From: Phoronis australis | Lineage: Eukaryota; Animalia; Phoronida | Assembly (NCBI GenBank): GCA_002633005.1 | Contig: NMRA01000149.1 | Coordinates: 564,192-628,191 of the forward strand | Length of the DNA: 64,000 nt | Direction: 5' to 3' | Shown here: positions 8,622-62,396 of the stretch, one piece after another | How positions within the stretch are numbered: the stretch's first letter is position 1 | How the letters are laid out: every line of letters begins with the position of its first letter | The notes under the pieces: model-generated | Databases searched by the model: none | The model's input: only the letters and a program-made list of their open reading frames with translations | Told to the model about the DNA's origin: nothing | Translations under genes and position numbers: made by a program

Positions 8622-9075
8622 CCTCAGTTTCAAAAATTCTTTTTTTTTCAATATGGCCGAAATTTTCCGTGGCGTGGGTTGTTGCGTCCTCTAGCGACAA
8701 TTTCTGAACCACGTGGTGCAAAATTTTACGGATTTTCACGAATTCCATTATAACTGATCTATGCGAAAACGAAGTCAATATCGCTGGGGCAGCAGTTTCT
8801 GATGAGTACCTGCTGCTAAATTATAACAAATCGCATGTGTTTCTCTGGTTGCATTTTTAAGGAACTCATCAAAACCGCAACAGCATTCGGCCTGGAAGCT
8901 AGTCAACTTTTCCAAACGAGGCTGATCGCAGGTCCTTGGCTTGCCGTTGCTGGTGTACGGCTGTCGGGTTCCAGCATTTCTAAGTTGAATCTCGTTTTAA
9001 GTGGTTACATTTTAGGATCGTTACATGAAATAGTGTAACTTTTGTTTGGCCAGCAAGTGAAGATCGGCAGTGAAC
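8622..9075. promoter_or_regulatory. Probable bidirectional promoter and 5' UTRs between the DBHS and ZMYM genes
   Basis: About 450 bp between divergent start codons, locally CpG-richer, with a palindromic E-box CCACGTGG at 8709-8716. Confidence 0.6.
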
Positions 9076-21000: not shown

Positions 21001-24000
21001 TTACAAGTCGCACCAAAATTCACAGGTAGTTGCCATCACTTTTTGCTGTTGTTATGAGTGCTGGTCTAGCTTTCTGGGGACAGAATTTTCAGTGGCCGAG
21101 AACTTGACTTCTTTTTAATACTTAAACCAAGTTGGGATGATGCAGCACACACTCCAGTGTCTCCATCTGACTGACACTACTACTTGGTCAGAAATGTCCT
21201 CGCCTAAGTTGGGCATATTGAATGAATTTTCCTGATCAGTTAAGTATTGTCAGTATGTTCATGCATCTGCAGTAGCATGTAAGTACCAAGTAATCTTGGA
21301 ACAAGCTGGTGTTGAACATTAAAAAATGTGAATGTGAACTTTCACACTGCTCGTGTGTATAGAATTTGAATTCATACTTATGTCAGGACTTGAATTCTCT
21401 AAAGGTTTTGTGCAGTTTTGGTTGATGGTGGCATTTTAGAGACCCTCGTGGTTTTTAAACTTTGAATTTGTAACATTTAGTAGTGTATTTTGCCACTGCT
21501 ATCCCAATGAAAATTTTCTGGTGGATGCCTTGTGTTGCAGAGTTTGGTGTGTGAATAGACTGGTGAAGGTGGCTGGATTCTTTGTTGCAGAGTTTGGTGT
21601 GTGAATAGACTGGTGAAGGTGGCTGGATTCTTTGTTGCAGAGTTTGGTTGAATAGACNNNNNNNNNNNNNNNNNNNNNNNNNNNNNNNNNNNNNNNNNNN
21701 NNNNNNNNNNNNNNNNNNNNNNNNNNNNNNNNNNNNNNNNNNNNNNNNNNNNNNNNNNNNNNNNNNNNNNNNNNNNNNNNNNNNNNNNNNNNNNNNNNNN
21801 NNNNNNNNNNNNNNNNNNNNNNNNNNNNNNNNNNNNNTGAATAGACTGGTGAGGGTGGCTGGATTCTTTGTTGCAGAGTTTGGTGTGTGAATAGACTGGT
21901 GAGGGTGGCTGGATTCTTTGTTGCAGAGTTTGGTGTGTGAATAGACTGGTGAGGGTGGCTGGATTCTTTGTTGCAGAGTTTGGTGTGTGAATAGACTGGT
22001 GAAGGTGGCTGGATTCTTTGTTGCAGAGTTTGGTGTGTGAATAGACTGGTGAAGGTGGCTGGATTCTTTGTTGCAGAGTTTGGTGTGTGAATAGACTGGT
22101 GAAGGTGGCTGGATTCTTTGTTGCTTTTTATTTTAGGAGCCATGAAAAAAGAGGTAACCAGCTCAGGAAAAGAGAAAGAGAAACCGAAAGGAGGGGAATC
22201 GCCACAGAAGAAGCAGCAGAAGTGTATTGTGTGTCAGAAGGTAGGCAAGGCTTTGCTTTTTTGTTGTTCTCTAGAAAAATGGGTGGAGGAATTCAAGTAA
22301 CGTTCCTAAACCAATTGTCAATCTTTGTACATTTCTTTTTAAATGTATTTTCTTCACTCACTGTCTGATACCCTTAACATTTCTTTAAACACACTTTTGT
22401 ACGGTCTAATTTGGGAGTTGTTTGGGACTTCAAATTCATAGCAAAGCTTCATCTTCCTTTTGATTCTCGACACTTTTGGCAGTTTTGACAGCAGATTTCT
22501 CTCCAGTGCTTTGGTCATTTCGCTCACCTGTTTAAAAGTTTATGGCGGAAAGGATGGCATCCTGGATTTTGTAGTTATTTTTTAAAACGTGGAATAAAAT
22601 GGTCATCAAAAATGAAGGTAGAAGACATTTTAAAATGGTACTTTAATGGGTATTCCTAACCTCTGTTGCAGGTCCAAAAGTGCAAGTACAACATTGTACG
22701 TAACGGTGACATCAAGCACCTGTGCGATGACGTCTGCTTCAAGAAGTTTCGCATCAACCCTGTTGAGTACCTCAAGGACTTGTCCAAAACTGCTGCTCCT
22801 CCATTATCTTCTGCCGTAACTAAGCCCACCACATCCTTGAAAACGAGCAAAGATACTTCTGTTGCGACCAAAGGGGTGGAGTGTTGTGAGTGCAAGAAAA
22901 AGTCTGACTTGAAAATAACATGGCACGGCCTTGATTTTTGCAGCGAATCGTGTCTTTACCAGCGTGAGTTGTCGCTGGGTAAAACATGCGCATTTTGCAT
23001 GCAGATGATCGCGACGAGCTCGTTAAGCAAGTATTGTACAAACTCTGGTTCAGGCATCAAACAGTTCTGTCGGTCTGCCTGCCTGGAAGAGTTTAAGAAG
23101 CGTGTTAAACTCTGTAGTTCTTGCAACCGTGACCTGTCCACGTTGGACCATGACAGCTTCATGGCACCTGTCAGTAAGACGGGAGAGTTCCGCGACTTCT
23201 GCACAGAGGTCTGCATGACGAAATATTTGGACAATAGCAAGTATGTTCTCTCATATTGAGTTTAAGGACATTGTTCATTGGTACTATACACGCTGCAGTT
23301 ACGTTGCAGGTTCTATTGCATGTCTTGTCCTCAAAACTCTGGGTGAGGTTCTGTCAGGAATGTTTCCATGTAGAGAATTGTCTGTGTTTTCATGGGATTG
23401 AAGTACTCAAAGTCTTAGCCATTGATCAAAATTTCTTTTGCTTTTCTTGTGTAGAATTTGTTAAAATTCATAATGTGCTTTGTTTTTCTTACCAAGACTG
23501 GTTGGAAGCTATAAACAATATAATTAGTTAATTAGTACTATGAATAATATTGGTGAAGTTAAAAGACTAGGTCCTGCATTGTAACTTGATGGTATCAATT
23601 TCTGTATAAATAAGATGCGCATAACTTACTAATTTGAAAGTATTCTAATTATTGCTTTGTTTTATTAACAGGAACACTTCTGAGACCACTGTGGATATTG
23701 CTTCGCCGGGTCGTCGCACACGTTTGCAGGCAACCGTTGCAAGCTGCGCCAGTTGTGGACGCGCTGTTCCCACAATCCATCAGGTCCTTGTCAATGGCAG
23801 TGTACACAAGATCTGCAGTCAGGGCTGTCTGAACAAGTTCAAGGTTGACCACAGCCTGTCGGAGTTGAAACCTTGTGAGAGTTGCGGGGTGCTGCACGCT
23901 GCTACCCACTGCCACAACACGTTGAACTTCCAGGGTGCATCACATTACTTCTGTACGCCCACTTGTCTTAATGTCTACAAGGGCAATCACACTAAGGTAA

Positions 24001-27000
24001 TCTATTTGTGGTGTATTTTCTTGACTTGAATGTTTTACAGACCTGTGTACCATACGCGAAACATGCGTAGTCAAGCTGAAATTCAAGTTGCGATGTGGAA
24101 GGACACATTGACTACAGGAAACATGCAAGTAAAAGCAACTTGGGTGACCCGTTTCTGTAACTAATGCCTTATTCAAATCCTTTTAATGAGTGTATAGTTG
24201 TAATGTAAGAATATTTGGTTTTGATTTCAAATTCAAAAATTTCTCTTGCTTCATAAAGGTCATATTAAAATTAACTCAGGTTGGCGCAGTGGCAGACTTC
24301 AGGTTATTCGCTGTGTTAGTGAATGACGAGGCCAATTCTGTCGATATTCATGACTTAAAGTGTTAGAACTAAACTCTGTCATTTGCTGATTGCTCATTTC
24401 ATCCAACTTCAGCTATCTGCAGTAAATATCATAGTGTTGCTGTCAAAATAGCTATAAAGTGTGAGATTTAGGTTTCAAAGAAAAATTAGTTGTTGGAGTT
24501 GTGCGCTGGTGTCTGTGCCACCTGCTTACATGTTCACTGGCGTCTGTACCACCTGCTTACATGTTCGCTGGCGTCTGTACCGCATACTTACATGTTCGCT
24601 GGCGTCTGTACCACCTACTTACATGTTCGCTGGTGTCTGTACCACGTACTTACATGTTCGCTGGTGTCTGTGTCACCTATTTACATGTTCGCTGGTGTCT
24701 GTGCCACCTACTTACATGTTTGGTGGTGTCTGTAACCCGTACTTTCAGCATTTCTTCGTCATCGACGGAAATGCACATCAAACTCCCAAATGCTTAAGAT
24801 ACAGGGCAACCATTGATTGCTGGGTTTTGCAATGAGTTGGACTTACTGCTCAGTCTCCGTGTAGTAATAGTGGAAGTGGAAGCATACATAAGTTACGTCT
24901 GCAAATGCACTGACACGTCTGCTAACCAGTCAGTGTCAATTGTATTCGTATCATGTCGTGGTGTTGAGCACTATGTAAATAGTTGCCCTCGGTCTTTTCT
25001 TAATTACAACATTTACTAAGTTGTTTAAAAGGTAAGAAACTTAATACTGTGTCAGGGCTGTTCCAGCAAAATCTGTATGGGAGGGGGGGGAAGGCACTTT
25101 TATTTCGTACCCACCGCCTATATTTTTCATTTATTTCTCCAACCCATGACCCATAATTTTTTAGTTATTTTTAATAGGTTAAAATATAAAATCCAACACT
25201 TGCAAACAAATTGCCTCCAGGAGGACCTGTTAAGAACTTAGATGATTGACAGACAAGAACTAGTTGTCTTGTCCAATATTGTCAAAAACTTATTTAAGTA
25301 ACCTGTGAGCAATACTTTTGGCAGCCACCAGGTGTCTCTGTTCACCATGTGTCTATAATTTCAATGAACATTTTTTCAATTATAAGGATCTATGAATCTC
25401 AAACTGACTCCACGAAATCTTTTATACTTCTATGTCAAGTGAATATTGGAATTGTTTATCTTACTCCTCATACTTTTTATTTAAAAATCATCAATTTTCT
25501 TATATGTGTTAACACCAGTTTAGTGTTGCAAAACTTCAATTCAATGGAACTGCAGACAAACAAGTGGCTTAAATCAAGTTGCCCATGACTTGATTAATGG
25601 CTTAGCTAACATATTGCACTCTGTTCACTGGCAATACCGGCTGAAGTAACCAACCTGTCAACATTAACAGGTCAAAAAATACCACCCATTTTTAATGCAT
25701 CACTTCTTAAAGGAACGACCACCCATAATTTGAGTTTTTTTCTGAACACCACCACCCATGAATTTTTATTTCTACTGCCGTCCCCCCCCTCCCACCCGGA
25801 TTTTACTGGAACAGCCCTCAGCATGCTTTCTCAGGAAGAAGCTGCTTTTAAATATTTCCATAAAAATGTGAAAATTTTCTGAAAAATCTGCATGTCTGTT
25901 AAGCAGAATACTTCGAAGCAGTTTTGGTGGTACACGGGTTTGTTTTGATGAAAGACATGCTACATTAACAAAAATACACCATAGAAAGAAAAACAAGGTG
26001 TCTGGTAATGTTAAGGTAAACATTGGACGGTACTCAAAATATTGTGATGTTTTACTCCTTTATTAGGTGCCTGTAATAAGTATGCTTTATTTTGTTCACT
26101 AAGGTGGTGACCTGCTTATGGTGCAAGATGAAGAAAGTAAACTTTGATATGGTGCAACAGATGGGCCCCAACAACAGTCTTCAGTATTTCTGCACTCTCA
26201 AGTGCCTGTCGATGCAGCGTGTGAAGACGCAGGCTACCTCTAACCAACCCATTAGTTGCGACCACTGCCACAAGGTGACGCCACCGCAGTACCACCTGAC
26301 TATGAGTGATGCGTCAGTGCGTAACTTCTGCTGCTACTCGTGTGTTATGACCTTCCAAAGCCAGTTCCAGACAGGCCCCAGGAAGACATCCCTGCCCCCA
26401 CCCCCACCGTATAAACCTCCGATGACGCGTCCAACACACACCCCTGCCCCTGCCCCTGCCCCTGCCCAGGTGCACCCATACCGAACCATGCCAACACTTC
26501 AGAGAATGCCCCAGCAAGCTTCTCAACCAGGTAAGATTGATAGTTTACCCAACATTCCTATCATTTTTAATGTGAAATTTGCACGCTTCAAGTGTGTGCA
26601 GTTTTTGAAGAAACTGCACAATGGTTGTATTTTATCATATTCTATGCTACCAATCAACAAAATGTTATTTTTGCCTTAATTACATTTGTCGAGAAAACAT
26701 AGACACTTCATCATACAGTGTTTTATTCCCAAGCACTACATCACAGTACCGACTCAACACGAGTAGGGGATTTGCAAGGATTCACCACTTAAATCATTCT
26801 GAAAACATTGAGGAAACTAAGCACTGCTTCAAGTTGGTTTTTAATGACGGAACTAATCACAACAGTATGTGGTTAGCGTGTAAATGGATATTTAAGTTAA
26901 CTAAGGAAATGATACCTTTTGTCTCTCTTTATTCTTCTGTCTGATCCTTGACTTTCCAGATTGATCATAAACAAATAATTGCAGGCGGTCTGACACATCT

Positions 27001-30000
27001 TGTATCAGACTTGTGCAGGCCGTGCATGTGGGCCCATTGCATTGATCACCTGGAACTATTTTTGCGCTTTATTAATAGTCAAAGTCGAGCTGAGGAGCTA
27101 GAAATCTGACTCAAGGGTCTAGCAGTGTGGCCCTGCAAGACTCGAACCCATGACTTCTAGTGAAAAAAGCGGTCACACTAGGCTACACTAGGCCACACTT
27201 GCCACACTAGGCCACACTTACCACACTAGGCCACACTAGGCCACACTTGCTACACTAGGCCACATTTACCACACTTGCCACACCACACTAGGCCACATTG
27301 CCTCCTCTGGGAACTGATCAGTTCTCCCAACACTTCATGTTTGCATTTTTAATTTTTCCTCAAATTCCTTTTTTCCACAAATTTGTAGGTTTTCCTAATG
27401 TTTTGTCAAGGTTTGTTGATGAGTAAATTTTTTTTAGTCTAACGAATAAACATCTAATTATCAGAACTGAAATGAAATGCAATAATCATACTAACTGTTG
27501 GTATCAGTTAGATTTTTCAGACTGTTGAGCTGTACTGTAACAATGACTCCTCTTGACACCAGAAACAGTGGTATTCTAAGACAGGCTGCCTAATATAAGG
27601 GTGTAAAAGCTGGTCATGTGTTCATTGTTCTGTTGCTAAAGTAGTGGACAAGACGGGGATTGTCTGGAATCATTTGGCTAAGTTTTGGTTTGCACTCTCC
27701 GTTTTGTGAATAAATTCAGTTGAATTTTCATTCTTTCAGTTCTTCTTTTTTATATTTGTAGTGCATTTGTTTTCCAGATTATAATGTTGGGCATAATCCA
27801 GCTGATGTTTGTGTGCATTACAATGTCACAATATCAACTGTAAATATGAAATGGTCGCTCTAAGTGCTCTACCTTTTCTTACTTTATTCCTACTCTTTTG
27901 TGAAAAGTTGTTGGGAGACCTGAATTAATGAGACAGAAAGTGTTCTTTGACTCACATTCTCAAGTTTTTGTCTCAATGCAGTTTTTCCACAGCTGTTGAC
28001 TCAATTCCAAACCTCCATCTGCCTCTCTATGGCATTGTTACAACACTCTGACTGGTGTACATTTACATATAATGGCAACTCAATTTGAACACAATTCCTG
28101 TGTATATCTTGTTCAATTTCATTTTTATGTGCCTATATATGTTGGTGCATATTGCAGTCGTCTCTGACTGGGCATCTGGTGTACACTGTTGTTTCTTCTA
28201 AACCCCTTACTTGATTTTCATGAAGTTTTTTTTTGCTGTTAAGCTGATGAAGGATGACTTTCAAATAGATTCCGGTTAGTGCTGTGCCACATAATGTACT
28301 TACTACTAAGCCAGTTGCTGGATTTTTTCACATTTGACTGATTTGTTCCTAGTGTCAAGGAGACAATACTACCCATGATTTTTGAGCCGAGCCAACTTAT
28401 ATCATGAATCTGGATGCTGCTTTTAGGTTTTTGGGCCTGTCTCATCTACTGCGTTTGATCAGGACTCTGTTTCATGAAAGTTTATTTCTCTAAGTTTGAT
28501 TGTTACCATGACATAACAATGTTTAACTAGCGCAACGTGATGTGATGGAATGACAGCATTGTTATTTTGGTCTGAGTAAAGACTAGACTAGTTTAATGAA
28601 ACCGAGCCCAACAGTTGTTGAATTCATGACTTCACAGTTTCATTCGCCATCTTGAATATTGAATTTGGTAGAGTAAACAAACCAATAGACGTATGTTTTC
28701 CATGTGAGTTATGAGTGAGTAAGGCCTGTCAAAACCAATATTTTTTGAAAGATATAGACTGCATTATCAAAAGTTTGCTTTTATGCCATTCGCAACACAT
28801 TATTTGAGATTTGTTAAAATCTCCCATTTTTCTTCCTGAGAACATCTTGTGATCAATTTTGGAGCACATTGTAAGACGTCAATGTTGTCGATAAAATTCC
28901 GATGCTTGCAAAATCGGCCACATTTTCACCCCAGAATCACTTTTCATACTGATAGTCATCAATGCAAGGAACATCCAAGTCTTTCCAATATTTCAGTCAC
29001 TAAAGCTGCGTTTTGCCCTGTTTACCTGGCTAGAAAAGAAAGTCAACTTTTACCCTCTTAAAAACGATGTCGGTATTGGTTACCGGGATAGGATTCTATT
29101 TCTGTCACCAGCAAGAATATGCTTCAGAGTTTATTGTTGTTAGCCAACCCTATAATTGCTTTGAAAATGCGCATGTACATATGCCTGGTATTGTCTATGA
29201 CTTTCGGTTTTTATTGGAAGTTAAGTCATGACAAGGAATATTATGAGACCAGTATAATTTGATTTTGATTTTGATTTTAGCCTCTTAAACAGGGTGAATG
29301 CAGCTTTTTTAAAGTCTTAATGTCATTACAAGTTATTGCCCAATGAAATTTTCTGTGTCCATGCAACCCTGCAGTATTCATTGATGGGATAAACGCAGGT
29401 GCTGGTTTCATCATTATTACTATTTTAAAAGAAATCTGCATCGTATTGTCGGGTCTCCACAGAGTACAATGTAAAAATCAGCTTGTTTACTCTGCCTAGT
29501 TCTTTACCACACTACTTATGCCCAACTCATAACCAGAGGCTCGTGTATAGACCTGACTACTCCAGTGCCTTCTGGTGGTAATTTCACTTTTCTTTGAATA
29601 TCTTTCTACCAGGATTGTATTTACCAATTCTCGGATGACTAGCACTTTGCACTAATGGAGTTGTTTTGAAATTTCAGAAATGTCTCGGTCTAGTGATTGA
29701 AAATGTTCGAAAAATGAGCTCTCGTGATATCTTTGCCATTTGCATTGCACACCATATGCACATATCAACATGTGAATTCAGTTTTTGTTGTTCATATTTT
29801 TTTCATTGCCTTGGACCTTTCATTCCAATGCCAGAGAAGTGTTTCTGAGATAAAGCCCCATCTACACACAACTGAAAACATGCCTTGGAACACAGTACTA
29901 TAATAGTGATATAGTACGAAGAGTATGGTACAACGTGTATGCAAATTTCACTGACTGTGTGAAAATTTTGTCTTGTGCCTGGTTGCATGAATAGTCCTTT

Positions 30001-33000
30001 TGCGAGTTTATAACAATAACGCGAGATTGTGTGAGACTCAACACTGACGTCACGGGAAGTGGGGCAATAGCTTGTCGTTTGGCCATTTGCCCAATACGGT
30101 AGCAGAGTGTATTCTGTTACTTTCTTCGAGTTTTTAGCCGTTTAGTTCGAAAAATGCCAAACAAGCTTTGCTGTTATGGCTAATGAAATTCAGATTTGCA
30201 CTACAATACGTTCTATCGTGTTTTGTGCTAATTTCGTCCCATGTTTTTTAAACGGGAGGTAGGCGAAATCCGCTCACTGATAAGTTTTCACCTCATCAAA
30301 AATACATTCTACACCAAAAATTATCACCTAAAACTGCGCTTACTTCTTTCAGTGATCTTTTCTGCTTCTAAACAAATCTTCGATGAAGCATAGCTACGGG
30401 AATTCAGTTGACTTTGGCGAAGAATTCCAACTCTGCTTTGTGGGTAGCCTACTGTTAACTTTGACCGCGCGCGCGATAACCACAAAGTATTTCAACTGAG
30501 TCAGGGGAGTATGAGGCAAAGGCTAACGCGAGACTGAGCGAAGCGCGAGACCTGGCGCGTGACACTTGCAAAATAGCATGAGAAAATATCAAGTGAAATT
30601 TGTAAGATTTGTTTCCCTTGGACTTTTTTCGTCAACAGGCGTGATTTCACGTAACTTCCTCAAAATTGCGCCCCATGAGTGAAACTCGAGCGAACTGCGA
30701 GGTTTTCATGGATATGTTCAAGTTATTTGTAGACTAAATTGTATCCAGAGTCAGAGTATGTGTTAATTATAACTCCATGTGCACATATGCATGTTTCATT
30801 TGATTTTATTTGCTGTATTTTGAAGTGTGTAACTTTTTATGGGGATACACTATCGCCCCTGTATGCCTGCGGCATTCAGGCCTAAACCGGGTTGAGTTCC
30901 AATTTCAGTCCGTTCACACCTTCGCACAACATAACAAGTTCACATTTTCTTCGTCCATTCACAGTTATTCCACGATCCATCTACCATCTCTAAAGTTGTG
31001 TTAACGTTTTAAGCGTAAAATTCACCACAAGAACTCCAGTAAGATTTAGCGTGTGTAGCAAAGACTCGGGGCAAAACAAGAGCAATATAGTGGGTTTTGC
31101 CCCTCTTCCGGTGACGTCACATTGACTAACGAGAAACTCGCAAGTCAGCTATTGTGGGATGTCAAGTTGACATCATGTTTTTGCACGTCATGTTGCCATT
31201 GGTGATTAATATTGTTTGTGCCAGCAGCAGTCACATTTGGCCAATGAATAAATACTGGTGTAATCCAGCTCAGGTTATCAACTGTGAACAAACAAGGCTT
31301 ATGGTATAATTTGTTTATAGTATGATTAATGATACAGAATCTGTAACTTTTAACACAAAAAACAGATTTGCACCGTAAGATATGAAATATTCACTGACAT
31401 GTCATGAAGTCGGCGACCGATTAGAGAAGTCAAAGAATTTTTTGACAGAGTGTTCAGAGTGTGGAAAAATCTCTGTATGTGATGCTGTTACTGCTGGTCA
31501 TTTGACCTTTTGTTTTGTTGAGGTCAATACTTGGAAAAACAATTCAGCCTTGAGCACTTTGATTTAGGCCCTGTGGTGCACTTGGATGAATCAGATGATG
31601 ATAGCTCAGGAGTGAGTGACAATGAGCAGGGCATACAGGCTGTGCCAAGATCACGCTTTGCAACTGTTGACAACAACAGGCTACAACAGATCTTAGACGG
31701 AGTTCACTCAGACAGCACAAAGAAATTAACTATGAGCTGTGTTAACATTTTCCGTGAATATCTACGAGAAAAAGGTTTTAATGAACATTTCGAGTCCATG
31801 ACTGCTCATGAGTTGGATCAGATTTTACAAAAATTCTACTTGGAAGTGCGCAATCAGCAAGGAGAGCTGTACAAAAAGTCATCAATGCTTGCAATCAAAC
31901 ATGCACTCAACCGCTATCTTCAGAGCTTAAAAAGTAATATGGACATCATTAGAGGAATGGATTTCAAGGAATCCAATAAAATGGCCAAAGCTATGTCTAA
32001 AGAACTTAAGAAGGCTGGCAAAGCTGGCACCGAACACGTAGTCCCAATTCTGGAAAGTGACTTGGTGGAAATGTACGACTACTTCAGCCTTGGTGACCCA
32101 GTTACACTCCAGCAAAAAGTATTTGTTGATTTAGTTCTGCACTTGGTTCGTCGCGGTCGAAAAGATCTTCGACAACTTCTTGTCACCGATTTTGAAGTCC
32201 AGGTAGATGCAGATGGAAAGCAATACATCCACTTGAAAAATCACAGAGAAGATGATGCTGAGAATTTAAGACGATTATATGAAATCAGAGGTAATGATTT
32301 TGATATGAACATGATTCCAAACCAAAAGTTGTATTAATTTTTCTTTATTTTACTAAGTGTGGTACTTTTGTGGTTTCACTGATAATTGTATTATTTCTTG
32401 GATTGCATTGTTTTCACATTATAGTGCAAAATCCTCTTGCGTGAGTAACTTCAACTTCATATTTCAATTTAAAGAGTACGTGCTATTTATTTTAATTTTT
32501 ACGATCCATTGTTTTTATATTGATGCACTTGGTATTTGTATTAAATTTAAATTACAACTATAGCCACGGCAACACCGTCAAGTGTCACTGTCTGCATATC
32601 TGGCATGGGGCTGAGAAGAATTAACTTGGACTAATCTTCTTTTTTCAGGGAGTCGAATATGTCCTGTTGTGTCCTTCCAGCTGTATCTTTCCAAATTAAA
32701 CCCCAAGTGTGAGTTCCTCTTCCAGAAGCCAAATATGGTGACTGGCCCTGCAGTATGGTACTGTAACTCACCACTAGGCCATAACACACTGGGCAGGATA
32801 CTAAGTGTTATAAGTAAAGATGCCAAGCTGTCCATGGTCTACACCAACCAAAGTCTCAAGGCCACTGCATCAATACATCTACCAAACCACGCGCAATTTG
32901 CTGGCAGGCATATCATGACTGTTCCTGGACTTAGAAATGAGCAAGTAATGAGAACTTGTGCAGTTCCCACAGGTGACCAAATGAAGGACAGAACATCAAC

Positions 33001-36000
33001 TGTTGTTAATGAAAAATATGGGTTGCCGCCTTGTAATTCAGGTGAATTTTCCCTTGGCTGTTGCTGTGCATGTAACTTATCATCCTCTAGTGGCAAATCC
33101 AGAGGAAGCTCTTTGATGATATCTTGTCTGGAAATAAGGATCTGATCAACAGGTTAACTGATACAGAACTTGACTGAATTCCAGACGCCTTGGTCACAAT
33201 CAGGGTGCAGTGTATCTGTGTGAATATTTGTTTGTTTCGTTTTCTTTCTTTCATTGTATTTATTGGTTTGTTTTGTTTACAGACTGGACATAGAATATAT
33301 TTATATGAATGTTGTAACATTGAGAAATAAGGGGCTCGTTCCAAGAAACTAGCTTAAGGTCATCATCGGTCTTAAGAATCTAAGATTTGTCTTTGTCAAA
33401 GATTTTTTTGTGATTAAATAAAGTATCTTAACTAAATTCGACTTCATGTTTCTGTCGTAACTTCAAGTAAATTCTCACTTTGTCTCAAGTCGATCTAAAG
33501 TTGTCAAGATGCCAATCATTTGAATTTATCGAGGAAATTTAATCAAACAAATTTAAGAGGTTATTGCAACCTCCAAACTGGAATGCTTCAGTCATGTAAA
33601 TTTCTTTTTTCTTCTCAAAACCCCTGACAAACGGTTGTTCATTTTGTCGTTGTTTAATTTAACCTCTAAACGTGGAGAGCTTCACTTCCATTTTGTTATG
33701 CGACTACTGTGCTTTAGCCTTACAAACCAGGGGTAACTGTTTCGAAAATGGCATTTTGTGGAAATCAGATGTCAAATCCAAAAGTTTTAGTGCCCAATCA
33801 TCTAAAGCTGATTTCTTTAATAAAATTTCTGAACATGTCTGCAGAAGAATTTGGAAAGGGGGTCTTGAGACAAATCTCCAGTTGGAAACTTTAGAGGAAC
33901 TTTCGATCACTTTCTTGGATCTGATTTAAGATGGCCTTTAGTTTTAACTTAACTAAGTTAGTTTTCTTGGAAGGGGCACCTAAGAAGTACATACAGAGCA
34001 ATGTGGATAGCAAGAAGACATTGCATGTGTTTGTCAGGTTGTAATAAAAACATAATTTAACTGTCAATGGAAACTTGTTTATTTGTTCACAGAAATAATG
34101 ACCACCAGTAACACAATAAAGCATTAAACATGTGAGCTGACTTCACACTTTCATCTTAAAAATCTTCACTTCTTTGATGGCAAAAATGAGACGCTGTTTC
34201 ATACATCAAGTTAATTTATCAAATTTTATCTAACTGCCTTGTGGACGAAGTCCAGTTTGTTGATTTCTTCTGCTCTAGTTTCTCTGTGGGCTTTTTGTGT
34301 GTGGTCTTGACTATATTACTCTATGTTCAGGTAAATGGAGAGAGCAGGTATTGCATGAAGAGAACAATCTACTAAACAGTAGGTCACATGCAATACTACT
34401 ACACCATCAATCAACAAAACTGTGTCTGTTGTCTAGGATAGCTGAGATTGGATGTTGATATGGGCACATTACCATAGCTGCTATACAAACCTGCAGTTTG
34501 CCAAAGAAAAGAAATTTTGATTATTAGCTCGTACTTCTAATAATCTGGTTTCAACTTTGTCGTTACTCAAATACTATCTTTGGAAGGAGCTGTTGGTTTG
34601 GTATTGCCTGATACCAAGACGAGCTCTTAAAGTGGCCCGCTGTTTAAGCCAACTTATTGGGTCAGGTCTCTAGAAATAAAGATTTCTAAGAACAGCAAGC
34701 TATCGGTTCTTTCCAAGCCCTCAAATCACCTCTAATCTGAAAAAGTAACAATGAAGTCAAGACCAGATTAATATGACAAGTTTCCTTAATAGTGATTTAG
34801 ATTTCTGGCAGAGGAGGCTTTAAAACATTAGAATGTTATTTAGTAATTCTCAATTATGTTTCTTGTGTTATTTCAAATACTGTGAAGAAATTTGAAAGGC
34901 ACAGGATGCAAAACTTGTTCATCTAGAACAAAACATTTATTATCAATCGACAAGAGTTATAACTATATTTTTTTAATAATAAAATTGGTCAACAAACCAC
35001 AGTTATTGTGTGTAATTCATACTTTCATTTCTCATATCTTGCACATGAGTGAGAGTGACTAGGTTTATCATAGTTTGAGAATCACTAGATTTTTGTTGGC
35101 ATTGACAAACAAACAACCTGAATGTGACCAAGGTGAGAGAAATGTTTTTGCGCAAACCTTATCAAACCATTTGCAGGAATTACCTTCATCAACTGGCAGC
35201 TTCATTTGAAACTTGACTTGTGCCAGTGTGACCATGTATTATTGGAACAGTTGTTGAACATAACAGTTCTTCACTGTAACATTACTTGTGTATTTGTCTC
35301 TTCCTGTTGTTGGTGTGTTGTATCGCTCTGAGGTTTAGATTTCATTGTTGTAGACTTACTACTCTTGTAGTGTTGAAATATTTAATATTCTGTTGATATA
35401 GGCGTTCTTCAAATTTGTCTCAAGTCTATGATAGCAAAGATTAATCGTGTAATAAAGCATCTATTGACTTCCTATCTGAATATTCATTACTTTTCTCCGA
35501 TTGTCCTCGACAGTGGTTCCAGTCCAACCTCCCCAAGCATCACTTCCTCAGATTGCCAATGTCATGTCACTAGCCCCAGCACCAAGTCAAACAGCCAGGC
35601 AGAAATCTACGGAGACAACTAAGTCATCACCAAAGACCCCTAAGGTGAGGTGTACGTCTAACCTGTTATTACCCTGTTCAGCTCTGTTATGACTATTCAA
35701 AAAGGTACCAAACGTTTTACTCTGTTTAAACCTATGTGTAAATTTGCACCTATGTCTGGAATTTGGCGCCTGTGGCTAAACTATTTATAGGCAAAATCAA
35801 GGAGCAAATTTATAAAGTAATAGGTGAGAGAATCGCATGTGTTGATATGCATTCAATTTAACGGACAAGTCAAGTTTCACTCGTCTATTATTTTATAAAT
35901 TTGAATGGAATGATTTTAAATTATTGAAAAAAAAAACATTCCAAGAAAGGGTGGATGTGCCTAAATATTCACTTATACTGTGTATGCTGTGTGATTGGTG

Positions 36001-39000
36001 TGATTTGGTCTCGCAACAGAACACTTGGCATAACTTCCAACTTCCATGTCTTTGGGCTATAATTACTCTGCGCGTGCAAGTGCAGAGTACTGTAGTTGTT
36101 CCTGAGTTTTCTTCAATTTTATTCTTATTACTCTGCGGGTACAAACGCAGAGTTTTACTGTTCTACATATTTTATCTTCTTATTACTCTGTGCGTTCAAG
36201 CGCAGAGTTTTACTGTTCTACATATTTTATCTTCTTCTTATTATTATTATTATTGCTCTGCGCATGCAAGCGCAGAGTACTGTTGTTCCTGGGTTTTCTT
36301 CAGTTTTATTACTATGTGCGTGCGAGCAGATTTTGACCTAGACACTTCAAATTCACAAGTCTTGACTGGTACGTCTAAGTCAATTCGAAATACAAAGTTT
36401 CAGGTCATTTAGTGCAACCATGGGGTCATTAGGTGCATTTTTCTTCAGAAAATTTGTCCTTTTCATTCATCAAGTATTCTGTTGTGTCAACCGTTAGACT
36501 ACTGTGATTCTCAGCATTAAGCAAACTTTTCACGGGCTTTGCAAAAATTCTCCTAAAGACGCTTATAATGCACCGGATAGGGTCAATTAGTGCAAAGGTC
36601 ATCTAACGTTCAAAATGTTATATCTAGTACATTTTTCAACGAATTCTTTTGAAGTTCAGCACACTAGTGTAAGTCACAATGCCAACTGAACGCCCTACTT
36701 TACTACGCAATAGGCCTAACCAATCAGAAAAATAGGTCGAATATCACTGAGTGCAAACTAAAATTTTAAGCTAGAGATTTCAAAATTACATATCTGTTTA
36801 GTAAATGTGATTGAGTTTGAATTCTAAATTATCAGATCATTTGGTGCGCCCATGGGGTCATTGGATTCATTTTTCTTCTGAAAGTTTGACCAATTCACTC
36901 ATGTTGTATTCTGAAGTGCTTAAAGTAAAACATCTGTGATTCTTAGCATTAACCACACTTTAAATCGAGTTTACATTTATTCCCTCATCCGGGCTCAAAA
37001 TGCACCGAAAGAGGTCAATTAGTGGAAAGTTTATCAAAATAGTAACATGTTATTTTTCCTACAATTTTAAAGAATTCTTTTTCAAATTGGTTAATGGGTT
37101 GCTGTCAGTAACTTCCCATAACAATTCGTTTAATGCACACGCGTAGAGTCCATTATTGTCACGCCGTGACAACGATCTTTTTAGTTCCACCTGCGAAATC
37201 TCTGAGTCTAGGGCCTGTTCCAAGAAAACTGACTAAGACAAGTCAATTTTAAGATAAAACTCAAGTCTTACGTCAATTCCAAGAATTTGATCTGAAAGAT
37301 GTGTTTGCATGCTCCTAACTATGCTAATGTATAGCAGGAACGAAACGACAGTGCTATTTGAACATCATCTACGCTACACTTGTAAATGTGAAAATAAAAA
37401 ATTCTGCAAATAGGTGACCTTTGCACTAATGATGTACTTTGGGGGCTCACATAACCGGCATCATGCTGTGTTGTTCCTCAACACCACATCATGATATTTA
37501 GTGGACACGATAGAGTGATTTACGGTGGATCATTTTCGACACAAAACTTGTTCTTAAAAACATTTGACAATTTTCAACCTACTTCATGTTCACATGGTAG
37601 CTATGTGTAGTGTTTCTAACGAATTTGACGAGGAGTCACAGAATAAGGAATTAGCGTGTAAGTTCCAATTTGAGTTTTTGCTTAAGTTTTGTCATAAATT
37701 TGACGTAACTTACTGGATGTGGAAGTTTCAAAGTTTGGAGGTTTGGACAAATTTCAAGTCAAAAGTGAACTTTTAATTGGTTACTTGGATTTGGCCCCTG
37801 GTCTGTTGTCCCTCTTGTTGTCTATGTAACATTCTTGGGTGCTTACTGCATGCTCTAATTGGCCCCTGGTCTGTTGCCCCTCTTGTTGTCTATGTAACAT
37901 TCTTGGGTGCTTACTGGATGCTCTAATTGGCCCCTGGTCTGTTGCCGCTCTTGTTGTCTATGTAACATTCTTGGGTGCTTACTGCATGCTCTAATTGATC
38001 ATATAAATGGTTTTAATTGGTTTTTTAATTGTTGTTTTTGCTCCTTGTGGCAAAGCCTTACCTGTGTACAAAAAATGAAACCATGAAATTTAGGTATTTT
38101 TGCCTACTGTGAGAACAAAGTTGTAATGGGAAGGTTTTGTTTTCTGTGAAGGTTTCGATGCCCCAAACCATCGTGCAAAAGGAAGTCATCATTCAGTACC
38201 CGCCTCCCAAACACGTGAAAAACAAGTCCCTTCTGTGCAAGCCTTATAGTCAGACCAAGGCTACGAGTTGCCGGCCTCACTCTCAAGCAAAGGAAACTCA
38301 GACAGGTGAGTGGTTCAAATGCATTTTGCGACAATGGTTCAGTTTTACTGTGGTAGGCTCACAAAATTGTTGAAGCAGTTCTTGATAACTTCTTGATCTT
38401 GTGAGAATGTTTAACCTCAGTGAATGTAGAAAGCTTCTATTTTGTAACTGTTCTCGTGTGTGTTCAAATTTGTTTATAATGAGTGTCTGCATTTGTTGTT
38501 TCTCAAATAGGAATTATCAACTTAATATTGAGATATCACAAGAAATGGTGTGAATTGCTTGTGATTGTATGGAATGTGTTTGGATTTGGATGTTTTCATA
38601 TTTGATTGGTTCGAGTTTTTTTGGTTATGCATTTGAGTTTCGAAGAAATTTTAATCACTGATAGTGAAACAGACCTCAGTGGATTTACTGTGAAGTTGTG
38701 ATGGTCAGAAAAATGACATATTTGAAGGTATGTGACTGGAGAACTAGTGAAGCTCAACCGGTGATCCCAGAATGACTATTAATGCTCATTGAGAAGAGAA
38801 CAGTTAGTTATTCATGATCCTTCCTCTTCTGCCTCGGGTGTTGTGTGGATGATAAAAAAGACTTCCGAAAACCCCAATCATGAAAAAGCCTTCATGGTAG
38901 CACTTTGGGAAATAGGGTTTAATATATCCTCCGTGTCACACTTTGAGGATTGTTTTGCATGTCTGGCAAATGTGGAAAAATGTGTTCAATACTTTCTCAG

Positions 39001-42000
39001 TTTTTGGTCTTTAAAGGGAATGTTGTATTTCACGTTGACCAGTTGTCTGTAGAAGCATCATTGGACTTCTCTCATAGTGGCCAACCTCCCATCAAAGTGA
39101 AAACTTCCTCTTATAACATACTTTAAAGCAGTACGCAGCGCCACCTTTGAAAATCTTGTTTTGTTTTTAGTATTCCTTATTTCAGGTGATTGAACCACTT
39201 AGCAGATGGAGTTAATGATTTCTTCAACATAAAGATTCACTGCACCTGTAACTTGATCTATTTTAGTTTGTAGTTTGTGATTTCAGCTTGATTGAATTAG
39301 TGTCGTGTGGATCTTTAAAAGCTTTGGCTGCATGAGGATGTTTGGAGCAGCAGTACATGTTTCTGAATACCCTCCAGAAGTCTTTTTGAACACATGGAGT
39401 ACTGCTGAAATAATCCATGTACTCTAACGTACTTGCCCACATGCCTTATTTTGTGTAGGAATATAACTGTACAATACTTTCTTACTTCGCTTGTATCAGT
39501 GTACCCATGATCGATAGTGTACCCATGATCGATAGTGTACCATGATCGATAGTGTACCCACGATCGATAGGGTACCCACGATCGATAGGTTACCCACGAT
39601 CGATAGTGTAACCACGATCGATAGTGTACCCACGATCGATAGTGTACCCACGATCGATAGTGTGCCCACGATCGATAGTGTACCCATGATTGATAGTGTA
39701 CCCATGATCGATAGTGTACCCATGATCGATAGTGTACCCACAATCAAAACCCTCGCAATTTTTGTTGAATAAACGAGTATTTAATGGTCTTATGCATTAC
39801 AGCGAATTTCGTTCAATCAAGTCTCAGACGCAAACAGCTTGTACTGCGTGCATGACATGTTGTTAACTGAATCACCCGTGTGCAAAATCTTTTTTTAATG
39901 CGTGTAGTAACAAGTTTCAAGTAGCAGAGGAAGCAGATGATAGGCAAGTTTCCATTTTTGAAAAAAATGCAAATTTGAAACAGAAATGTAGATTGAATTG
40001 TACTGAAAACTCCTACATTTATTTTAATCGAATTACTACTTGTCAGGAAATCACTACGACTTCTAGAGACGCGTTTTCAGAAACTTCAAGTTGTGGGGTG
40101 TTGATCATTTTTTGTGGGTTAAGTGAGTTGTCTTCTATCTCTTGTAAAATTTTAGTCACTTGACTGATTTTTCTCTTCGGGACACCATTGCGAACCCCAG
40201 AAAAATATGTTTTATTGCAATGAGTGAGCTGTTCCAAAAATAGCACAGAATGTACTTGGAAGGACTAAATAAGTTAAAAATGTTTTGAAAATGGGTACAC
40301 TGTTTCTACACATGAGTCCTGATTTATTTACCAAAATCTACCTTTCTTGTAAATGTCCACCCTAGGCTTCTCAAAACTTTTTCTTTTTAATTGCTCATGA
40401 TATAAATGCCACATTCAATTCAATATTTTCTTTACAGATGGTGAGCCAGAGAAGATGCCTGTAGTAATCCCTGTGCCAGTCCCCATCTACATCCCTGTAC
40501 CCATGGCCATGTACTCACTGCCCACACCCTTCCCATTTCCTGTTCCTATTCCTGTCCCCATTCCATGTTTTATACCAACTACGAAAAAGTCAACTACGTC
40601 CATTTTGAAACACATCAAGGTAGGTTTCAGTGTGTTCTGCTGCTTAACTTAACTGAGTTATGTTTATGTGCTACAATACTAGAGGAGAATTACTGTGTTG
40701 ATGCCAAATGGCAACTGTGTAGTTGTATTTGTGAATGGTGTCTTACATCTTGGAACTGAAACAGATTTCCATTCAGTTTGTGAGATCTCCATGTAAAGTG
40801 AATAAAGTGGGTTCTTTAACATGCATGATTTTGTCTGATTTAACATTGATGACGTTTTCTTACACTTTAGGAAATCCAGGAACGCCTTCCATCAGATCCT
40901 CTGGAGGCAGAGCTACTAATGATGGCTGAGGCTGTGGCATGCTCCGAGAAAGTGACGGCTGAGTCAAGCGACGAGAGTGACAAAGAAGATGGACCTGGTG
41001 AGACCGTAGTCAAGTTGAACTATCCATTTACTAACTGTAAACATTCGGTTTAGTGGTTAGGGCAGTTGAATTGGTAAACGGAAAAGTTCGGGGGTGGGTA
41101 ATTACCAGACATGGGTGCTTAAATGGAAAATTTTTTGAGAAATCAGTGGTGGGTGCTTGCTCGAACATGGGTGCTTAACTCTTGAGTCGAAGAGTCGCCC
41201 TGGCCTGCCATGACTTTTGAAATTGAAAACTCAAATGATTTGTCAGATTTTGATGGAACTTGTCACAAAGGTATTTTTTGCACAGGCACCAGATGATTTT
41301 CGGGTTTGTACTACTTTAGCGCTACCTGTTGGCCATTTTAGTTTTTGACAAGGCATTGCTCTTCTTTTGATTACTGCCGAAATAGAAATTTTTGGTGAAA
41401 CTTGACACAAGGATTAATGGCTGGGATGTGCTGGAACCTGTTGATTATTGGACAGATTGGTTTGCTATTGGCAAATGACATTTTATTTTTTGTTCAAATA
41501 TTGCTTGTCTGTTGATTGTGATCAAAATGGCTTGACATATTTTTGGATGAACCTTGACAATGGGATGTTTGGTTGTAATGTGCCAGCACCAGTCAATAAA
41601 AATGGCTGACCTGATTTATGTAATTATATTAAACGAAACTAATAAATACCCTAGAAGGGTGTGTGTTGCAGTGGTGGGTGCATTTCAACGATTTTCGTTG
41701 TTGTTCAAGTCAATGCCACGCAGTCCTGTGCATTTTGAGTAATCTTGATCAGCCTTAACTCATTGTGTGCTAGAAACGCTGTCTCTTTTTGTATAAAACA
41801 TTACGTTTTACTGAGGAGAGAGATTAATGTGTTACTGTTGTTTCAGAGAGTGGGTTAGACTCCTACCAAGAAACACCCACAGCACTGAACACAGACTCTA
41901 ACACGTTCGGTGAAGACATTATGCAGATGGCACTTCAGATGGCTGAGATGACAGAGCCTGTTATGGACTTAGAGGACTCGCTGGCTCCTGTCCCTGTCAA

Positions 42001-45000
42001 TCAAAGTAAGTAGCTGATGGTGACACTTATCTGTTAATGTTTTGTTGCATATTTTGGTGACTGAGGGAGCTTTTACGAGTGTGTTCCTTCATTCGTAGTG
42101 GTAACAATTTCGCTTTATTCCCCCTGTCTAAGTAGAGAATAGTTTGATGCCTTAGAACTAGCATTAGTTGATAGAATTTTTGCGAGATGTTGTTCCTTTC
42201 ATTTTTGTGTTTATTTTTCATAGCTCAAGGGGACTTTTCCACCATTGACTCGGAGAGTGGCATTTTCACAACTGGTGCGGCAAAACGTGGACGAAAACGT
42301 CAGTCAAGATCGTCCAAGCGTAACGTTGGAAAGCGACCGCGTACTGCTTCTCCCACTCCTGTCGCACCCCCAGTACAGGTGGCGCCCTCTCCAGATGCAG
42401 ACATGCACTTGAAGTATATGTACGGGGTGAATGCCTGGAAACACTGGGTGGCCCAGAAAAACCAACAGCTGGCGGAGAACTCTGATGGACGTGGCCGTAC
42501 AAAGAAGTTCAAAACAGATATCTTGGCTTGCACAGCAGATGAATTAAATTATTCACTGTGTTTGTTTGTTCAAGAAGTCCGGAAACCCAATGGATCTGAA
42601 TACGCTGCTGACAGCATTTATTACCTCTGTTTAGGTATTTACTTATTTTGTCTTCCACAAATTCAAATGCTCTGTGGTCTAATACCATTACATTGACATT
42701 TTGTGGTTGTGATTTCAATTTCAAATACTTACAGTATACATCTTCTGTGCTGACACTGCTTTTGTTTACGTACTGTTTTGAGGTCAAAATACCTCATCTC
42801 TTAGAAACCTGGATGGTACTTTGCATCTGGCCAATAGATGAATACAAGAACCACTAGCACCAACTGCCCACATTATCCCAAACACTGATGTGTTTCTTTT
42901 TCATGAAGCAGAGCAGTTATTGTCTCAGCTACGGCCAGTCCACCCTGGGTATCAAAATCTGTGGTGCTGGTCAAAAAACTTCCAGGAATGTCTTAAGTGA
43001 CTGTAAACCTGCCTTTCATGACAAAAAATGAGTTAGACCTGTCATCGTTTTGAAATTGGTCTGAAATTGTTTCTTAGTCAAATTTAGTATGATTTCTGGG
43101 CTTGGAAGGAACTGATAGTTGGTGATTGGTTGAGTTGAGTTGTAACAGTTTGTCAGTGTATTCCCTCACCATGGTTGAGTTGAGTTGTCACAGTTTGTCA
43201 GTGTATTCCCTGAGCATGGTTGAGTTGAGTTGTCACAGTTTGCCAGTTGGTGATTGGTTGAGTTGAGTTGTCACAGTTTGTCAGTTTATTCCCCGAGCAT
43301 GGTTTCTAGCTATATCAAAATGTTACTTCTTTGCAAGACCAAAAATAACTGTCTGAGTAAGGAACTAGCTGAGACTTATTGTATTCCATAAGGTTCTAAA
43401 TCAAAATTTAGTTTCTTCAATGTAAAGCAGGTTTATTGGTTTCTGCATTTGAAAACCACTGTCAGCTGGAATACTCACTAAACATGATGTGGTGTGCTTA
43501 TTATTTTTTCAAGTGTTCAAACGATGAGATTCGTATTGGTAAGGCTGGGTAAATATTAACTACCAGCATTATAAACATCTTCCATTAGCTGTTACAGTCT
43601 GTTGTCATTTTTCATCTTTGTCCTGTAATATACCACTTTTCTTGTATTTGTTGTCTTTCAGGTATCCAACAATATCTATTTGAAAATGGTCGCATCGACA
43701 ACATCTTCACTGATTTCTACTATGAGAAGTTTACTGGATGTCTCAACAAAGTGATTGGTCTATATGAAGCGCGTCTTAACGGTGAAGGTAAATTTACCTC
43801 GCAGATGTTTTTTACTGTAAATTTAACAGACACAACTGGTGATTCTCAAGATGCATTTTCCAGCACTGTTGTTACCTTCTGATGTTTCCATGTATACACA
43901 ATGGTGGCTGATTCATGATGATTTATATGTTAGTAACATAAAAAATTCATGAATAACTGTGTGACATATTGAAGGATTTGGTATTTTAGTCAATAGTGGA
44001 CTGTTTGCCACATGTTAGAACCCTTGTCATGAGAACAGGACCCTTATCTCTCTCTACAAACCACAATTATAACTCTTACTACACATAAAACACCCCTGCC
44101 AGCCAGTTCTTTTCTCTTGTGTTAAGGATTCATCCTTTAGGTATCACTTGCTACATTTACTGGTAATTATAACAGAAGAAGAGGGGCACTCAAGAGTCCC
44201 CAGGCCTCCCGTCCAAACAACCAGAAAAACCTGTGCGATATTAGGGGTGAAGGAAACTCTTCCTGTCAATTGTGGTTGGTCTCCACAGTGATTACTATAA
44301 TCATTATTATCCTGTGACAGGTATTCTAGTTTGTCGTATTGAAGAGGAGCACCTGTGGGAGAGCAAGCAACTTGGTGCCCACTCACCCCATGTCCTACTC
44401 AACACCCTGGTCTACTTCAACACACGATATTTCTTCTTGCGCTCGCCAGAGGCTCACCTCAAGTTATCCTTCTCACACATTATGAAGCAGTGGAAGAAGA
44501 CGGCTGTAACGAGCTCTAAGAATCAGAGCCGTAGTGTGTACTTGCGCTACTATAATCCGGCGATGACAGGTGAGAGGCAGGGGAGGGAGTGTTGTGGGTT
44601 CCAAGTGCTCTCTAATGGAGCTGTTTGTACTGTGAGTTGGGGACTATTATTTATTCTTCATAAAATTTTGTTCTTGCATGTAGATTTACTTGTGTCTGAT
44701 TTGACTTTAAATTCTCTTTTATACCTATTTCATTAAATACCTGACAGTTAAGATTGTGTACCAACTTCAGTTAATTTTTTCGGGGTCTGTGAAAAGTCTT
44801 GCATTCTCTGATGACATACCTTAATCTACTCAAGTTGATAAATAATTGCTGTGTTTACTGAACTTCACATGATACGACAAAACTTTTCTGAAAATGGTCT
44901 GGGTATGTGGGCCCGCCATGCTACGACATCAAATTTTTATGGTTGTCCACTCAGTGATAAGTCCACCTGTGTGGCACCCACCCACCCACCCACCCACCCA

Positions 45001-45066
45001 CCCACATACACACACACACACACCCACATACACNTAAAAATATAGGTACATATCACAAACATGTAT

Positions 45067-45098
<32 letters not shown>

Positions 45099-49678: not shown

Positions 49679-50110
49679 ATGCCAAAAGGTTGCTGTGTAC
49701 CGGGATGCACCCACTATGACCTCGCTCGAAGCTTAGGTTTTGCCTTTCACCGGTTTCCGTCCGATGACGAAGTTCGCCGTAAATGGATCATTCGTATTAC
49801 GGATTTCCCGTTAGCGGCAAACGCTTCCAAGCAAGAGGTGCAAAAATTAAATTATCGAGTATGCGGGAAACATTTCCTTCCCTCGGACTACGAGAGTGAA
49901 ATATACTCGGAAATTATGAAGCTTCCTCCAAAACATCGCCTGAAAAGCGACGCCGTGCCGTCGATATTTCCATCAGATTCAAAACCTTTGAGCAACTTTA
50001 CAGCTGTGCAGACAAGTGATAGCAACTGCAAGCCAAGTTCATCTGTTAAGTCTGAATCCAGTGAAGAGGTCAGAGAACCAGACTTTGACAAGTTTGACAG
50101 CAAGGCCAAG
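49679..50110 (+). CDS. THAP domain (C2CH zinc finger) first exon
   Basis: MPKGCCVPGC...FHRFP..DEVRRKW...RVCGKHFLPSDY...RLKSDAVPSIF shows all C-C-C-H ligands, the conserved P/W/F/P residues and the AVPTIF box. Donor AAG|GTATTT. Confidence 0.95.
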
Positions 50111-62100: not shown

Positions 62101-62396
62101 TTGATCATGATTACAGCGCTTAATTGTGAATGTAAATGCTACACTATGAAAATTTTTGTTGAATGTCATACAGTTTTGTCAGAATTGTTGAAAGCTGTCA
62201 GTGCTGACCATCTTCGAATAATTTTTTTTGTTTGCTCTGAAGGCATCGATGCCCCAAACCATCGTCCTGAAGGAAGTCATCATTCAGCACCCGCCCCCCA
62301 AGCACGTGAAAAACAAGTCCCTCCAATGTAAACCTTACAGTGAGACTAAGGCTACAAGCTTTCATTGTTGCAGTGAAGACAAGGAAATACAGACAG
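49679..62396 (+). CDS. THAP-domain and MYM zinc-finger chimeric gene (tandem ZMYM paralog); probably continues past the right edge
   Basis: Phase-consistent exons: 49679-50110 (THAP), 53734-53821, 54194-54285, 55307-55845, 57311-57590, 58714-58918, 60668-60792, 62243-62396. Exons 2-8 match ZMYM exons 20923 to 38305 one for one in order and intron phase (e.g. GIMGTEKL vs GIMGMDKL, and [32 protein letters not shown]). No stops or frameshifts seen. Confidence 0.88.
50470..52720. mobile_element. About 2.25-kb DNA transposon derivative with a 4-bp TSD (Sola-like)
   Basis: Termini GGGCAGTTCT / AGAATTGCCC with TTTG on both flanks; subterminal motif GTGACG(G/A)ACG occurs three times. A diverged inverted copy of the right end begins near 63638. 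Confidence 0.65.
56583..56760. repeat. 59-bp perfect tandem triplication
   Basis: Units start at 56583, 56642 and 56701. Confidence 0.95.
58526..58588 (-). repeat. tRNA-like / SINE head fragment
   Basis: The minus strand reads GATAGCTCAGTTAACTAGAGCATCTG...CCCAGGTTCAAGCTCTGG, with A-box and B-box-like motifs. Confidence 0.5.

Follow-up and report, generated by a model that had tools for sequence, protein, structure and literature searches.

A catalytically dead Crypton recombinase module in an intron of a phoronid ZMYM gene and its possible use as an alternative C-terminus

The domestication of a Crypton recombinase domain (DUF3504) by ZMYM genes has been described as a single event older than the bilaterians, too old to be watched in action. 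A locus in the phoronid Phoronis australis raises the question of whether a ZMYM gene has taken up a Crypton domain a second time, and in what form such a domain would be used. The window analysed here is a stretch of 64,000 nucleotides (nt) of contig NMRA01000149.1 (assembly GCA_002633005.1, forward-strand positions 564,192 to 628,191), numbered below from its first letter, and it contains a NONO/SFPQ-like gene, a ZMYM/woc gene and the beginning of another, divergent member of the ZMYM family. In the intron 26531-35513 of the first ZMYM gene, on the same strand, lies a two-exon recombinase frame, hereafter the module. The original prediction, made from the letters of the sequence, presented this module chiefly as a cassette spliced in frame into ZMYM, and otherwise as an alternative C-terminus.

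Identity of the intronic module

The features on which the argument turns are the following:

15195..46206, plus strand: host ZMYM/woc gene; the model has 18 coding exons and leaves the true first exon unplaced
26104..26530, plus strand: ZMYM exon encoding the last MYM fingers and ending at the phase-1 donor CAG/GTAAGA, candidate upstream partner of the module
31523..32290, plus strand: module exon 1, with an acidic leader lacking Met, the SRF motif and the core-binding domain, first catalytic Arg kept
32291..32648, plus strand: module intron 1, phase 1, at a position common to 16 of 150 Crypton relatives
32649..33041, plus strand: module exon 2, the remaining catalytic domain, with H>Q, R>K, H>L and Y>C
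33042..33282, plus strand: module intron 2, a prediction only; if unspliced, the frame runs to the stop at 33145
33283..33440, plus strand: predicted short last exon, with three codons, a stop and AATAAA at 33417
35514..35644, plus strand: next ZMYM exon, phase-1 acceptor

The 18-exon model of the host gene translates with a single, terminal stop and confirms that the intron holding the module is of phase 1, as predicted. MYM fingers are encoded upstream of the module, and the old QRICH1/DUF3504 block lies at 42224-46206. The module frame opens right after a TGA at 31519-31521 and comprises 421 open codons, and its two exons (768 and 393 nt) fit between the flanking ZMYM exons in frame and free of stops, which agrees with the 387 codons originally counted.

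The claim of an intact two-exon Crypton frame is likewise upheld by homology, exon-1 fold and translation. Exon 1 matches 3,144 representatives at E<=0.001 (best 1e-48), with top identities of 41-49%, and the module matches the Pfam families PF25561 (E 1.5e-5) and PF12012 (E 8.9e-4), both under the curated cut-offs. A structure model covering exon 1 only has a pLDDT (predicted local distance difference test) of 92; its top Foldseek matches are to Cre (template-modelling score 0.55-0.59), and it also matches the QRICH1-containing Zincore complex 9HJT (E 7e-4). Trees place the module among CryptonA-like proteins with an intact tetrad, far from the host's own DUF3504, which forms a separate long branch; this rules out the module as a duplicate of ZMYM's own domain. 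The module is thus a CryptonA-type tyrosine-recombinase frame with, as modelled, a Cre-like fold. It is present once within the 64-kb window. A metagenome scan gave 113 pattern matches with no relative of the module among them, and a database label search returned the DUF3504/QRICH1 label again and nothing more. Among 150 relatives, 17 alignments ended in the interval of the module's internal intron, one of them without the motif, which leaves 16 that run into intron-like sequence at the same glycine (...G/). Because the position is shared in this way, intron 1 is an old Crypton intron that was brought in by the element.

At the five catalytic positions the module reads R-Q-K-L-C, whereas 22 of 32 full-length relatives read R-H-R-H-Y. 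The module has therefore lost four of five catalytic residues and, judged by its sequence, is catalytically dead, a point absent from the original prediction. It deviates at 10 of 42 columns that are at least 90% conserved among the 22 intact relatives (leave-one-out median 6%, maximum 15%), four of the ten being catalytic columns, which are invariant in the 22 through the selection of that set. The changes concentrate at the catalytic end (3/27, 5/25, 7/17), with 4/5 catalytic versus 6/37 other columns changed (Fisher P 0.008). When neutral decay was simulated with an assumed indel rate, none of 1500 runs preserved a frame without stops or frameshifts at 17% amino-acid change, and 1.7% of runs did so at 9%. 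Since four catalytic residues were lost and yet the frame is open over 421 codons, which is rare under neutral decay, the module is probably a protein-coding unit that remained under selection after catalysis was lost. Catalytic loss with the frame kept is the signature of domesticated DUF3504 according to Kojima and Jurka (PMC3212892, in its accessible part).

How would translation of this frame begin? The first in-frame ATG (31732) lies downstream of the SRF motif, whereas the annotated N-termini of 110 relatives begin a median of about 11 residues before it. Because the conserved SRF helix sits upstream of that ATG, an upstream exon is needed, either ZMYM's or the module's own, as had been proposed. 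A 61-codon frame from ATG 31382 (31382-31567), with several Cys and His, overlaps the module start in another frame; as a candidate frameshifted N-terminus it gains no support, none of the fetched proteins resembling it (best E 0.27).

The module as a candidate tail of ZMYM

Our leading explanation, held tentatively and at somewhat less than an even chance, is that the module serves as a minor alternative C-terminus of ZMYM. In a minority of transcripts, the exon ending at 26530 would join 31523 or 31568, followed by 32290>32649 and then by 33041>33283 or by read-through to 33145, with polyadenylation near 33440. The resulting isoform would have about 1,400 residues, starting the count at exon 15195. 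It would lose none of the MYM fingers, but would exchange the proline/valine-rich region and the old DUF3504 for a younger recombinase-derived tail. By analogy with the QRICH1 domain, which is part of a zinc-finger coregulator (title of PDB entry 9HJT; PMC13538652, accessible part), the new tail might act as a non-cutting clamp for DNA or partner proteins, and the isoform might steer ZMYM co-repressor complexes elsewhere or act as a competitor of full-length ZMYM.

Splice sites were scored with matrices built from the 23 acceptors and 22 donors of the two ZMYM genes, a small training set, and ranked among the 493 AG and 569 GT dinucleotides of the intron. The internal sites of the module are good (donor 32290 rank 8/569, acceptor 32649 rank 3/493). 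Exon 1 has two candidate acceptors, 31523 (GAG) and 31568 (TAG), both of phase 1. The claim that the frame opens exactly at acceptor 31523 stands as to position and phase, but the site carries less weight than supposed: it ranks 33/493 and outscores 11 of the 23 true acceptors (leave-one-out), an equally good phase-1 acceptor occurs within a 130-nt stretch of intron with a chance probability of 0.146, and the TGA noted just before it shares letters with its AG. At the other end, exon 2 has phase-1 donors at 33041 (rank 3/569) and 32972 (rank 6). The former, as predicted, is a phase-1 site just past the conserved domain and exceeds what chance would give (probability 0.019, about 0.02). Acceptor 33283, which the original prediction did not mention, lies 241 nt beyond donor 33041 and is the strongest of the whole intron (rank 1/493); with the splice 33041>33283 the protein would end in ...CNSDWT-stop, three codons on, followed by AATAAA at 33417.

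ZMYM proteins of other species provide a comparison. A search with the MYM exon gave 172 matches, 120 of them listed, and 86 ZMYM proteins of at least 900 residues were compared, including about 30 near-duplicate Logan entries. Six of the 86 have a newer Crypton domain, in every case as a replacement tail and never in tandem. In the abalones Haliotis rufescens and H. cracherodii, RefSeq isoform X1 equals X2 through residue 1236 and then enters a 397-residue Crypton exon (P0026, P0122), which is 97% identical between the two species (386/397), 36% identical to the module, and replaces the old DUF3504 (XP_048236651.1, XP_071112637.1). This tail keeps H-R-H-Y, only the first catalytic Arg being gone. 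In the scallop Mizuhopecten yessoensis, four of five listed RefSeq isoforms (X1-X3 and X5; P0075, P0125-P0127) leave the canonical protein at ...VNT/, the same junction as in the abalones, and continue into tails that hold two Crypton N-terminal domains but lack a catalytic one. The Haliotis and Mizuhopecten isoforms are gene models only, and neither Logan entry in the abalone cluster (P0123, P0124) crosses the fusion junction, so that they give no independent transcript support.

Haliotis X1 and Mizuhopecten X1-X3 and X5 resemble the proposed phoronid isoform in that MYM fingers are joined through a phase-1 intron to a newer Crypton C-terminus in place of the old DUF3504. They differ in their branch point, ...VNT/, and therefore keep the proline/valine-rich region. 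In the window, this junction corresponds to intron 42006-42223 (218 nt), which holds no module. In addition, the abalone exon groups with the Crypton of toadfish ATF7IP, and a clade with the module is rejected by the approximately unbiased (AU) test (p-AU 1e-41; 24 rows, LG+G4 quick search), with the same separation in a 49-row tree. The different intron and the AU rejection rule out orthology, and therefore the module and the abalone exon are separate captures. The mollusc gene models make the idea of an alternative ZMYM tail more credible, and the corresponding part of the original prediction gains from them; here it is unproven because no spliced read joining ZMYM to the module was listed, only skipping.

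Fusions are frequent among the matches of the module's Crypton group (ATF7IP, BTB, C2H2 arrays). A word-index search for longer, fused relatives of exon 1 found 0 among 4,431 candidates, a weak blank, given that the abalone fusion was found later via the MYM exon. One protein, P0216, combines a Crypton with an ATF7IP-type fn3. In two unnamed proteins, P0237 and P0240, a Crypton and a second Crypton N-domain occur together with a MYM finger and with linker motifs like those of ZMYM; from their sequences these proteins may belong to a separate ZMYM-Crypton chimera family.

Evidence against an alternative tail, and rival explanations

Two repeats in the same intron bear on these explanations:

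29990..31155, no strand assigned: high-copy CpG-rich repeat with inverted arms at 30045-30067 and 31097-31119, 370 nt upstream of the module
33333..33980, no strand assigned: miniature inverted-repeat transposable element (MITE) of 648 nt with terminal inverted repeats and TAA on either side

The MITE is one that we take, by convention, to be Harbinger-like. The CpG-rich repeat has both-strand reads at 90-95% likeness and no homology to the module, and imperfect inverted ends starting AATAG as well as two TGACGTCA motifs are seen in it. The idea that it is the Crypton element's own 5' end is unsupported, no matching repeated 3' end being present among the reads.

RNA evidence was drawn from about 18% of each of three raw-read runs with the same species label, all of one study, aligned to 25900-35900; junctions were listed from three reads upward, and reads counted over the module had a likeness of at least 92%. 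Several observations, from these reads and from elsewhere, weigh against an alternative ZMYM tail. The skipping junction 26530>35514 has 1, 4 and 0 reads in the three runs (five in total), and no junction into, within or out of the module was listed at the three-read limit in these shallow runs. In favour of such a tail, the module bins have a mean summed depth of 2.6, compared with 1.4 in 11 clean intron bins (a set from which repeats, recognised by their plus-mate reads, were dropped), 0.08 in the bin of the module's intron and 5.9 on the ZMYM exon upstream. This excess is weak, however, with a Poisson P of 0.03 when the comparison is with all clean bins and of 0.23 when it is with the five upstream ones, and run X3 has almost no module reads. 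Acceptor 31523 is a GAG, a type that occurs in none of the 23 acceptors of the two ZMYM genes (13 CAG, 6 TAG, 4 AAG) and is the rarest of acceptor types (PMC3095350, as far as its accessible text goes), and the alternative acceptor 31568 is mediocre (rank 67/493). The poly(A) signal at 33417 sits inside the MITE, a later insertion. Moreover, none of the 86 ZMYM proteins has a Crypton domain at the equivalent of intron 26531-35513, the equivalent intron of the tandem paralogue (58919-60667) is without a module, and the abalone and scallop captures sit at another intron.

How far do the reads constrain the use of the module? By a rough estimate, an inclusion rate of 20% would leave no inclusion junction listed with a probability of 0.92; for 50% this value falls to 0.22, and for 70% to about 0. 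Skipping is thus the main form, and majority inclusion of the module is unlikely, because only skipping is listed and no such blank is expected at about 70% inclusion. At this low depth, the reads are compatible with minor use as well as with none. Reads on the module bins are of the sense strand only, and bin 33582-33915 has none.

Of the rivals, the one that survives best, though we think it unlikely, is a nested, same-strand domesticated Crypton gene with its own promoter, whose coding frame would begin either in a small first exon or at ATG 31732 and whose transcripts would never be spliced to those of ZMYM. A promoter could come from the CpG-rich repeat, and such a gene would account for the selected open frame with its own stop and AATAAA, for the sense-only reads, which extend into bin 31244-31577, and for the lack of listed ZMYM-module junctions. 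Most relatives of the module stand alone as proteins, and the closest named one among the matches listed, Pinctada FSP39_008656, is on a 67-Mb contig, whereas Pinctada ZMYM is on a 92-Mb contig. However, no in-frame ATG lies upstream of the conserved SRF helix, the ATG-plus-donor candidates in 31156-31520 have weak donors only, and no site where many molecules start was listed at this low RNA depth. In addition, the animal cases in the accessible part of PMC3212892 are host-exon fusions.

It is improbable, in our view, that the module is an ordinary dead Crypton copy in a large intron, with splice sites that are the element's own and with reads that come from unspliced ZMYM pre-mRNA. The size of the family, the ancestral internal intron, a 5' phase match within chance, the depth indistinguishable from that of the upstream intron bins, several other repeats in the same intron and the failure to find an orthologue among the 86 ZMYM proteins all fit such a copy. 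Nevertheless, four catalytic losses without a stop or frameshift would be very unlikely in an unselected copy, and no pile of divergent two-strand reads (at least 92% alike) is seen on the module, unlike on the neighbouring CpG-rich repeat.

The in-frame cassette that headed the original prediction (26530>31523, 32290>32649 and 33041>35514, placing MYM fingers, new Crypton and old DUF3504 in tandem) is the least favoured form and, we consider, still more improbable than a dead copy, for although its frame is exact, its donor 33041 is strong, well placed and of the right phase, and tandem layouts occur elsewhere (P0237 and P0240, and P0216), acceptor 33283 is a stronger, nearer and frame-ending partner that already explains this donor, no 33041>35514 reads were listed, and the newer Crypton is a replacement tail in all six ZMYM proteins that have one.

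Known captures and the surroundings of the locus

Capture of Crypton exons by host genes is known from KCTD1b, the DUF3504 pair of KIAA1958 and an intronic copy in ATF7IP, and hAT-derived tails are known on ZMYM1/5/6 (accessible portions of PMC3212892, PMC9004415 and PMC13465315). Isoforms a and b of KIAA1958 each use an alternative exon for a DUF3504 domain of Crypton origin, and the two domains differ from one another but are alike in being catalytically dead (PMC3212892, accessible text), which resembles the arrangement proposed for the module. KIAA1958, however, is a vertebrate gene with intronless exons conserved across tetrapods, whereas the module has its own introns, has no orthologue among the 86 ZMYM proteins and sits in a ZMYM host with a far older first domain. 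The intronic Crypton of ATF7IP (PMC3212892; PMC9004415; toadfish RefSeq isoform P0192) is, like the module, an intact frame in an intron of a chromatin regulator and a predicted alternative exon; it differs in host and Crypton lineage, has been conserved since early jawed vertebrates and, in the accessible text of these sources, stands in a host without an earlier Crypton domain.

A dead Crypton fold in a transcriptional regulator is also what the module shares with the DUF3504 of ZMYM2/3/4, woc and QRICH1 (the Zincore subunit, PDB 9HJT) and with KCTD1b. It belongs, however, to a different branch from the old ZMYM domains and is no duplicate of its host's own. With active CryptonA transposons it has in common a single recombinase frame, the SRF and RRGR motifs, an intron position and 35-49% identity, but its catalytic H, R, H and Y are replaced, no start codon precedes SRF, and nothing in the RNA reads points to many near-identical copies. 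The literature searched, with subscription papers, Repbase reports and supplements lying outside that search, yielded no account of a second Crypton domain in ZMYM itself.

The abalone, scallop and phoronid loci can be read together. We give nearly, but not quite, an even chance to the view that fresh Crypton recombinases have entered ZMYM/woc repeatedly in lophotrochozoans, with at least two independent captures (this locus and the abalones) and perhaps three (the scallop), which would differ both in the intron entered and in the Crypton lineage. Each would supply an exchangeable tail for the MYM fingers beside a domain domesticated before the bilaterians split, dead and selected here and with four of five catalytic residues in the abalones, and the paralogue would have taken a THAP first exon. 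If so, repeated captures would make the steps from recombinase to regulator comparable, from the near-intact tetrad of the abalones through the dead module here to the unrecognisable ancestral domain, and natural domain swaps inside a single gene would offer a test of the role of DUF3504 in ZMYM. Should the module turn out to be a remnant or a nested gene, it would join the thousands of other animal DUF3504 frames.

The remaining genes of the window are these:

4691-8690, minus strand: NONO/SFPQ-like gene, labelled by reading translations, with no family scan behind the label
49679-62396, plus strand: second, divergent ZMYM gene, in tandem with the first

In its C-terminal block, the first ZMYM shares 70-72% identity with most bivalve orthologues and 59-66% with those of gastropods, octopus and a nemertean; from these values the host would be a lophotrochozoan, probably a mollusc or a near relative of molluscs. 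Assembly gaps (N runs) are found at 21658-21837, within a tandem repeat of a ZMYM intron, and at 45034. The NONO/SFPQ-like gene stands head to head with ZMYM. Linkage of SFPQ/NONO/PSPC1 with ZMYM is reported for vertebrates (PMC3212892, accessible part), and the gene order here suggests that this linkage predates vertebrates. In the second ZMYM gene, exon 49679-50110 encodes a THAP domain (Pfam E 2e-16) and is in frame with exon 53734-53821, the homologue of exon 20923-21025 in the first, and the gene is therefore predicted to be a THAP-ZMYM chimera with the THAP domain as its first exon. It has lost the last MYM finger, and five later exons translate free of stops. Among the acceptors of the two ZMYM genes, the share of AAG (4/23) is high.

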